This document shows positions 35,031 to 36,217 of a stretch of DNA of 64,000 nt, one piece after another (positions within the stretch are counted from its first letter, which is position 1; each line of letters starts with the position of its first letter). The translations under genes were made by a program, and so were the position numbers. The DNA lies in assembly GCA_964016885.1 (NCBI GenBank), contig OZ024761.1:28024001-28088000 (forward strand), read 5' to 3'. The notes below the pieces were generated by a model. It was given only the letters and a program-made list of their open reading frames with translations. It made no database searches and was not told the origin of the DNA. The stretch comes from Eledone cirrhosa (Eukaryota).

Positions 35031-35518
35031 AGGTAATGTAATTAGAGTATTGAGGCCGTTATTCTACGTCAAAAACGATTGGAGCGTGCGAAAGTTTACT
35101 GCGTAGCGGCCATCTTTATGTGTATAATTAGAAACGGTGAGCTCAGGGAAATAGCTCAAGTAGGCCAATAGTGGATATATAAAAACTGCCGATAGACAGT
35201 GGATGATGTATGGAAATTGTGTCTCGTTTGTCTGTCTTTTAGTTCGAGAAAGAACACATTATATATTTATATATACTTGACTACACATATATAAATAAGG
35301 GTATATATATATATATATATATATATATATATATATATATATATATATATATATATATATGTATTATATATATATATATATATATATATATATATATATA
35401 TATATATATATATATATATATATATAACGAAGGAAATGTGGTAAGGAACCAGGTGGACCATAACGCACCAAAGTACTCAATACTTGAGGTAGTAGAGTGG
35501 GTAATAGGAACCAGTAAG

Positions 35519-35612
35519 ACCCCGACAGCTGAGCTCAAGCCGTTTCGACGGCTAATTCTGGACTAAATGAAAATTTATCCTGGTATTTAAATAGCCGATC
35601 TTCTCAAGGGGT
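35519..35612 (-). ncRNA. Type I hammerhead, U3-A8 core (family G)
   Basis: Reverse complement of 36000-36093. Confidence 0.75.
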
Positions 35613-35782
35613 AATTCCATATATGGTCAAAGTGATTGTCAAAAATCAGTAGTAATTCTGTGGTTGCAAATTAGTAGGGGAGATGGTGACTAAACCTGCC
35701 AGTAGTCACCATCTCCCCTACTAATTTGCAACCACAGAATTACTACTGATTTTTGACAATCACTTTGACCATATATGGAATT

Positions 35783-35876
35783 ACCCCTTGAGAAGATCGG
35801 CTATTTAAATACCAGGATAAATATTCATTTAGTCCAGAATTAGCCGTCGAAACGGCTTGAGCTCAGCTGTCGGGGT
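35783..35876 (+). ncRNA. Type I hammerhead, U3-A8 core (family G)
   Basis: ACCCC-UUGAGAA-GAuCGGCUA...UAGCCGUC-GAAA-CGGCU-ugagcuc-AGCUG-UC/GGGGU. Confidence 0.78.
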
Positions 35877-35999
35877 CTTACTGGTTCCTATTACCCCCTC
35901 TTTCTCCTACTGGCAGGTTTAGTCACCATCTCCCCTACTAATTTGCAACCACAGAATTACTACTGATTTTTGACAATCACTTTGACCATATATGGAATT

Positions 36000-36093
36000 A
36001 CCCCTTGAGAAGATCGGCTATTTAAATACCAGGATAAATTTTCATTTAGTCCAGAATTAGCCGTCGAAACGGCTTGAGCTCAGCTGTCGGGGT
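36000..36093 (+). ncRNA. Type I hammerhead, U3-A8 core (family G)
   Basis: Same fold as 35783, 217 nt downstream. Confidence 0.78.
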
Positions 36094-36217
36094 CTTACTG
36101 GTTCCTATATATATATATATATATATATATATATATATATATATATATATATATATATATATATATATATATATATATATATATATATATATGTATATAT
36201 ATATATATATATATATA

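Follow-up and report, generated by a model that had tools for sequence, protein, structure and literature searches.

Two near-identical hammerhead ribozymes set 217 nt apart on the same strand raise the question of whether they mark a retrozyme, whose tandem units can release small RNA circles, or the remains of a larger mobile element. They lie in a 64,000-nt stretch of the Eledone cirrhosa genome (hereafter the window), for which a preliminary description had proposed the first of these readings. Here we argue, with good though not complete confidence, that the locus is one 5'-truncated, two-armed insertion in a TA microsatellite, derived from an autonomous Penelope-like retrotransposon of 3,553 nt that carries Hydra-clade motifs; that the U3-A8 hammerhead of this element likely cleaves itself in vivo; that the RNA start likely lies inside loop II of that ribozyme; and that the 217-nt tandem, unique to this locus, likely arose by template switching or fold-back.

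A hammerhead with a U3-A8 core and its genomic family

The window contains three near-identical copies of a motif with the core UUGAGAA, recognizable as ACCCC-UUGAGAA-G at 35600-35612 (minus strand), 35783-35795 (plus) and 36000-36012 (plus), a pattern of which none is expected by chance (100 shuffles). They have the features of a type I hammerhead (core YUGANRA/GAAA/UH, three stems, N7 free), and when each copy is folded alone the hammerhead is its minimum-energy structure, including the previously noticed extension of stem I by GGAAUU/GGUUCC. The 8-bp stem II is present as well, although it contains one bulged U that had gone unmentioned. The two plus-strand cuts are predicted, as before, at a spacing of 217 nt. 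Compared with shuffled sequences the fold has no extra stability (z -0.36 to -0.79; frequency under 1%), and the pairing probability of stem I is 0.94 in a 181-nt context and 0.01 or less in longer contexts. An Rfam scan at E<=1 returned no hammerhead family at the three copies; among 62 distinct, closely related copies the stems are conserved, with no compensatory changes.

Across the genome, U3-A8 is the main core state of what proves to be a Penelope-like family. With the core left free in the search pattern (6,209 matches overall, 100 tallied by hand), position 3 was U in 80 copies, C in 19 and G in 1, position 8 was A in 99, and C3 occurred together with A8 in 19. Position 7 varied (G58/A16/T16/C10), while positions 4, 5, 6, 8 and 9 were 98-100% fixed. 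This combination of a fixed core with a free N7 supports the register assigned to the hammerhead and also selection acting on the core. CUGAGGA is not the family consensus: C3-G8 is nearly absent, its pattern having 61 matches (22 in the control), of which 12 are in-register copies of the family, while all cores together have 7,573. The earlier view of a type I hammerhead with a U3-A8 core, housed in a young element that CTGANGA searches miss, is thereby upheld.

Two further parts of that view hold in narrower form. The exchange of C3-G8 for U3-A8 had been described as a compensatory swap, and the U3-A8 pair is real, but C3-A8 and U3-G8 subfamilies have been amplified too, so mismatch and wobble cores also spread. 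The C3-A8 subfamily has about 1,187 matches, with A8 in all of the first 100, and 31 of its 35 sampled rows group as one branch; a mismatch subfamily of this size means that spread does not require a paired 3-8 core. The U3-G8 copies form a separate, diverged and smaller group. No order of events can be read from the tree of 118 hammerhead rows, because its root is a midpoint root, its bootstrap support is unsettled and its rows are pattern-selected and in part duplicated. The core had also been called rare, which is correct across hammerheads at large, but it is already known in Penelope-like elements (PMC4209133).

A two-armed insertion of a Penelope-like element

The parent element, found through 20 fetched regions, is an abundant and young autonomous Penelope-like retrotransposon of 3,553 nt; the copy at L033:4815-8370 is the reference for all element positions (ref) given below. 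Its 784-codon stop-to-stop frame (L033:4707-7058, first Met at L033:4909) is intact. Read by eye alongside 11 homologues, the frame has the reverse transcriptase motifs QFDI and YRDD and, C-terminally, the IYQ...YIG of a GIY-YIG-type nuclease. It further contains RLRWRT (RWK or RWR in homologues), SDKTGN, which is the DKT motif, the linker CNCPDRSIC, which is CxCX5C, and CNLC...E...N...CKH, that is, CxxC and CxH around a conserved E and N; a CCHH motif is absent, there being no cysteine pair between IYQ and YIG. The protein has 2,063 homologues at E<=1e-20, mostly of about 700 aa and 40% identical, and a Pfam scan of the frame found 0 families at E<=0.1. Judged from its sequence, the element has Hydra-clade motifs (a single frame of reverse transcriptase and C-terminal GIY-YIG, RWR, DKT, CxCX5C, CxxC and CxH). 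The Naiad clade was considered and excluded: PMC8557442 defines it by an N-terminal GIY-YIG nuclease, a DKA motif and the absence of a canonical hammerhead, whereas here the nuclease is C-terminal and the motif is DKT. The hammerhead lies 100 nt from the 3' end of the element, and its U3-A8 core is unlike the canonical core in the rows listed in File S2 of the same paper.

Copies of the family favour (TA)n tracts, which form both flanks of the window locus and flank most fetched copies. They have two fixed outer ends, ref 3556 and ref 3476, that face out into (TA)n, while their head-to-head meeting points are variable; in 13 of the 20 fetched regions, an arm in inverted orientation that ends at ref 3476 or 3478 abuts one ending at 3556, an arrangement that agrees with the tail and the pair of reverse-transcription start sites known from a Poseidon element (PMC11167929). 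Searched in the 3-Gb genome, where it had 287 candidates, the 217-nt unit matched 42 places among the 40 best, most of them lying as outward-facing pairs. When four contig sets of unrecorded kind were compared with the reference, a full-length 3,553 back-joint appeared in three of the four runs, and TA tails were seen after ref 3476. Contig depth is also greatest over the tail (L033:8266-8370), where many loose ends derive from diverged sequence; this tail is therefore likely common to further subfamilies. Parts of the element were seen in one run from a second organism as well.

At the window locus (Table 1), arm A (282 nt) and the inverted arm B (214 nt) match the 3' end of this element, and between them lies a duplicate of 197 nt. 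The pieces are 99-100% identical to the reference, the duplicate having a single substitution, at 35823, and it is joined to arm A through a 3-nt TAG overlap and to arm B through a 2-nt CC overlap. These overlaps make a fold-back or template switch during insertion the likely origin of the 217-nt tandem. The 80-nt tail is, by analogy with PMC11167929, likely the segment between two reverse-transcription start sites. The minus-strand hammerhead copy pairs with the middle copy as a 199-bp hairpin. A microRNA precursor at 35654-35743 was rejected: all Rfam matches there fall under the gathering score and are explained by the perfect hairpin.

Table 1. Features of the Penelope-like family in the window (ref, position in the reference element)
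Feature	Position	Strand	Basis or remark
Mini-insertion of the family, 195 nt, with two arms that each stop in loop II at ref 3419/3420	20293..20487	.	mapping
Left-flank (TA)n target microsatellite	35302..35426	.	tandem-repeat scan
Arm A, 3' end of the element, ref 3556 to 3275	35424..35705	-	100% identity to reference; first 3 bases shared with the TA tract
80-nt tail, ref 3477-3556, complete on arm A only	35424..35503	-	mapping to reference and analogy to PMC11167929
Arm A hammerhead copy; core 35607-35601, predicted cut after 35524	35503..35620	-	folding, pattern search
Middle duplicate, ref 3288 to about 3484	35703..35899	+	mapping; the aligner runs on to 35901/ref 3486, an overrun
Hammerhead 1; stem I 35783-87/35872-76, core UUGAGAA 35788-94, predicted cut after 35871	35783..35876	+	
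Junction producing the 217-nt tandem; genome-unique	35883..35907	+	pattern count
Arm B, inverted, ref 3263-3476; stops at the fixed second end point of the family	35895..36108	+	100% identity
Hammerhead 2; core 36005-36011, predicted cut after 36088	36000..36093	+	
Loop II insert; TATA-like TATTTAAA 36019-26, likely starts A36048 and A36053 (ref 3416, 3421)	36019..36053	+	inferred from sister-copy end points; features recur in hammerhead 1 at 35802-35836
Right-flank (TA)n target microsatellite	36106..36217	.	tandem-repeat scan
Older copy of the family; C3-A8 core CUGAGAA at 38650-56 (fourth pattern match, 38645-38657)	38510..38833	+	85% to reference

Since the locus is palindromic and set between long (TA)n tracts, the middle duplicate could in principle be a later local duplication or an assembly error instead of a product of insertion. 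We hold this to be extremely improbable, given that the middle copy has about 8 nt (ref 3477-3484) that are missing from arm B as well as a substitution of its own, and that comparable short arm-junction duplications occur in sister insertions.

How far, then, does the locus resemble a retrozyme? Its tandem has a period of 217 nt, 1.9 copies and 99% matches, although only two of the three hammerhead copies are in tandem and the third is inverted. Type I hammerheads do occupy at least two consecutive units, and the unit of 217 nt falls within 150-300 nt. There is, however, no repeated family of a mobilised unit, nor is the sequence separate from a coding element: all pieces align at 99-100% with the 3' end of the intact autonomous one. 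The 25-nt junction pattern has 1 match in 2,995,841,428 bases, whereas the 23-nt core pattern has 2,824. The first 100 core places form 62 clusters, with 28 outward-facing neighbour pairs, and all eight same-strand neighbours within 10 kb among them are spaced 3,057-3,569 nt apart. Such spacings of 3.06-3.57 kb approximate the length of the autonomous element and not 217 nt, and together with the single-copy junction they rule out a retrozyme family. The preliminary description had itself named genomic copies mostly outside tandems, with no circle detected, as grounds for giving up its reading of a retrozyme and a 217-nt circle, and the single occurrence of the junction speaks against that reading on these grounds. 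The 217-nt joint is also absent among the 15 contig joints listed of 48, which proves nothing. Other short tandems occur once each, every one with a unit of its own (257 nt at L178, 199 nt at L257 and 55 nt at L104). The first two (L178:948-1671, three copies of ref 3413-3556 plus 1-116; L257:318-682) have units that begin at the likely transcription start discussed below and carry half the ribozyme only.

It might still be that the locus is a newborn non-LTR retrozyme that has not yet spread. RNA starting at 35831, the likely start in loop II of copy 1, would contain the core strand of copy 2, which would also cut copy 1, and the resulting 217-nt monomer would circularise. Two complete hammerheads 217 nt apart fit the 150-300 bp range given in PMC7761336, derivation of retrozymes from Penelope pLTRs has been proposed (bioRxiv 10.64898/2026.07.22.740005), and RNA starting at 35831 would be free of the antisense arm. 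Against this stand the single-copy junction and the predicted folding. The cross pairing in stem I needed to cut copy 1 has a modelled probability of 0.06 in that RNA and the circle's own stem I one of 0.015, and RNA reading through from the left would form the 199-bp hairpin and bury hammerhead 1. We therefore judge a newborn retrozyme very improbable and, on the same modelled hairpin and cross pairing, a 217-nt RNA circle unlikely.

The surroundings of the locus include other repeats. Directly to its right, window positions 36240-38190 hold a frame with KIFNKHTIKFSYSTTSN, resembling the element's NKNTIKLSYSTTPN, and a CUGAAGA...GAAA motif near 38100; this is possibly an older Hydra-type element. 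Positions 12174-12251 are a tail-only fragment of the Penelope-like family, at 85%. Two more long inverted repeats, 33430-34096 and 33000-33292, sit within TA tracts and are possibly two-armed insertions of other families; the former contains a weak Hammerhead_HH9 match (33561-33596, E 0.82, under the gathering score). On the minus strand, 43957-45177 is a 406-codon frame with zinc-knuckle and nuclease-like motifs, which we take to resemble the C-terminal part of a non-LTR retrotransposon protein. Tandem repeats occupy 7968-9036, 10027-10976 and 27215-27611, with periods of 362, 434 and 96 nt. Outside the window, L044:4269-8573 is a different Penelope-like element in inverted arrangement (Pfam RVT_1 E 1.8e-10, weak GIY-YIG) near a copy of the Eledone family.

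End points of sister copies in loop II and at the predicted cut

Where the arms of sister insertions end bears on the RNA from which they were copied. A 24-mer of the tail has 8,020 genome matches, far above the core count. From the tops of three match lists, 115 tail-bearing arms were scored, comprising 105 arms mapped in 100 fetched loci (one end, at L202, corrected) and 10 known long arms that were left unfetched and counted as long. Sixty-nine of them end at ref 3412-3422, 8 at 3457-3458 and 13 further on, with 25 scattered over 3425-3454; partner arms end at ref 3412-3422 in 63 of 81 cases. It follows from this clustering that most copies are two-armed inserts of about 200 nt that stop in loop II.

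The peak falls on A3416 and the next base, with the TATA-like TATTTAAA 29 nt upstream. Where the end is unambiguous, meaning that the next base is not common to the other arm, an untemplated G is found at 15 of 20 ends at A3416/A3421 but at 7 of the 57 ends elsewhere (Fisher p 4e-7). An untemplated G is a possible mark of a reverse-transcribed cap in work on L1 (PMC9341517). The G at these clean ends being likely a cap mark, the DNA end points argue that the capped RNA of the element likely starts inside ribozyme loop II, at A3416/A3421, which would explain the loop II insert of about 37 nt that had been noticed at the outset. The initiator-like TTTAGTCC is conserved across subfamilies, while the TATA-like box varies between them. 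In some cases (L173, L174 and L247) the bases inserted between the arms repeat a short nearby stretch of the element (ref 3460-3466), a hint of repeated priming at the junction.

A second set of ends lies at the predicted GUC cut. Genome-wide, 306 loci match a pattern with two arms near the cut (control 0). Among the first 50, counted by hand, both arms end exactly at G3457, the first base after GUC, in 19, and in 12 of these the end is made unambiguous by inserted bases (p about 5e-5 if ends were uniform over 16 offsets); the other 7 are direct CCCC/GGGG joins, which a CG overlap would also give. In 9 more loci one arm ends at G3457 and the other within 3 nt, 14 are palindrome joins in stem III and 8 are otherwise. 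Fetching 20 cut-site loci gave 21 junctions, at all of which both arms end at 3456-3460, nearly all (TA)n-flanked. Unselected partner arms end at 3457 four times, against 0.3 per position nearby (p 0.012, corrected for 44 positions). A G precedes 2 of 9 clean ends at the cut, one being the mis-mapped L202. Three genome-wide pattern counts (8,020, 7,288 and 6,763) have no step at the cut, so it is a minority of arms (8 of 115) that end there.

The 12 loci of 50 whose arms both end unambiguously at G3457 suggest, as far as DNA end points can tell, that the ribozyme cleaves in vivo, the simplest reading being run-off on RNA whose 5' end the ribozyme made. The same element might instead carry a ribozyme that is effectively inactive in vivo, with the G3457 ends caused by stalling of the reverse transcriptase at stem III or by CG/GGGG joining, and the loop II ends by a structural or protein block. 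Palindrome-driven joins are indeed common, the 14 of 50 at stem III being evidence that sequence-driven joining hot spots exist; a weak hairpin with its 3' foot near 3420 is predicted in loop II; and the mismatched C3-A8 subfamily was amplified. In a Poseidon element, cleavage is dispensable in vitro and no RNA reads end at the cut, according to the one biochemical study (PMC11167929). Yet stalling at the base of stem III would leave ends at 3456, one base off the 3457 at which the 12 loci with inserted bases end both arms, a stall leaves the untemplated G at A3416/A3421 unexplained, and within the core N7 alone varies freely. On balance we regard an inactive ribozyme as rather unlikely.

Proposed route of insertion and comparison with known systems

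On the reading of a self-cleaving, in-ribozyme-initiated element, the encoded GIY-YIG endonuclease would cut both (TA)n strands, and the reverse transcriptase would prime two cDNAs (twin priming), one at ref 3556, 100 nt downstream of the cut, and one at ref 3476, 20 nt downstream of it; each cDNA would extend to the RNA 5' end or fall off earlier. Capped RNA from A3416/A3421 would begin with the 3' half of the ribozyme only, giving the mini-insertions of about 200 nt as the commonest product. An intact downstream copy of the ribozyme would be cleaved, and GUC-cut RNA would yield insertions of about 120 nt ending at G3457. Because the priming sites lie so close downstream of the cut, cut linear RNA templates only tiny inserts; long insertions, the window locus included, cross the cut site intact, and their template was therefore uncut or re-ligated. 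RNA from a locus with two pLTRs would yield at most one unit plus about 140 nt, and L031, with one unit plus 127 nt, fits this expectation.

Longer arrays also exist. L102-L104 (G000:C1:91473000-91493900) has 4.5 full-length tandem units with four intact frames, followed at the arm junction by a 55-nt piece (ref 1617-1674) repeated about 65 times. In a test for rolling-circle origin, units 1/3 and 2/4 of the array were found to have variants in common at two columns, but the incomplete fifth unit agrees with 2/4 at the only one of these columns within its reach. Such an array would need a multimer, a circle, template jumps or later duplication.

More tentatively, and with less than even confidence, the observations may be drawn together further. 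A core promoter would be fused into loop II of the U3-A8 hammerhead, so that every transcript would start mid-ribozyme and carry an intact ribozyme only at its far end. Thousands of tiny insertions would then record the capped start and the in vivo cut. With both reverse-transcription start sites just downstream of the cut, the source of long copies and of multimers of up to 4.5 units would be a re-ligated 3,553-nt circle. That circle would be the real circular RNA of the family, and stray short duplications such as the 217-nt one would be raw material for retrozymes.

With the Hydra clade (Craig et al. 2021, PMC8557442, including Hydra-1_Obim) the Eledone family shares the single frame of reverse transcriptase and C-terminal GIY-YIG, the RW[K/R], DKT, CxCX5C, CxxC and CxH motifs, the (TA)n target, a hammerhead near the 3' end, and tandem and inverted copies with a tail. 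It differs in its U3-A8 core, where all 26 Hydra-clade rows listed in File S2 have CUGANGA, in its loop II of about 37 nt and long stem III, and in size, at 3.55 kb with an 80-nt tail against elements "generally <3 kb" with tails of 30-40 bp; the hammerhead sequence listed for Hydra-1_Obim is also different. The U3-A8 core itself has precedents. Cercyon hammerheads of Schistosoma mansoni (Cervera and de la Pena 2014, PMC4209133; about 1,300 hits) have it in a Penelope pLTR, with close opposite-strand pairs, direct pairs about 3 kb apart and a circular template proposed; unlike the Eledone copies, they are minimal motifs with little helix III and low activity in vitro, and in vivo evidence is stated there to be absent. 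Natural U3-A8 hammerheads with the same core covariation were described by Perreault et al. (2011, PMC3088659), who state activity in vitro; the Eledone family has in addition a large C3-A8 and a smaller U3-G8 subfamily.

Poseidon PAc of Anolis (Frangieh et al. 2024, PMC11167929) resembles the Eledone family in its two internal reverse-transcription start sites that bound a tail, in cutting both strands of AT-rich DNA and in a hammerhead upstream of the start sites. Its core is C3-G8, however, its ribozyme needs protein and no RNA reads end at its cut, whereas genomic copies of the Eledone family do stop at the cut, and in loop II as well. Type I hammerheads in head-to-tail units of 150-300 nt also occur in metazoan non-LTR retrozymes (PMC7761336; bioRxiv 10.64898/2026.07.22.740005), but the 217-nt unit is confined to a single locus with 1.9 copies, forms part of an autonomous element and lies next to an inverted arm.

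The role of the hammerhead in Penelope-like elements is called unclear in PMC8557442, and in vivo "still a mystery" in PMC7761336. A search of titles, abstract openings and selected passages, with few subscription papers within its reach, found no report of a promoter inside a Penelope hammerhead or of genomic ends at its cut. The U3-A8 core is thus already known; what appears to be new is a U3-A8 form of a Hydra-type element, together with copies that point indirectly to in vivo cleavage and to a start within the ribozyme.

Two tandem hammerheads do not suffice to call a retrozyme, and CUGANGA descriptors overlook a family in which more than 7,000 copies bear the core. With cores mutated by nature, the C3-A8 and U3-G8 subfamilies offer a way to ask whether cleavage matters. 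If the end points are read correctly, genome sequence on its own documents cutting in vivo by a ribozyme whose core is non-canonical and places the transcription start at single-base resolution, and the same end-point count can be applied to any family with a microsatellite target.
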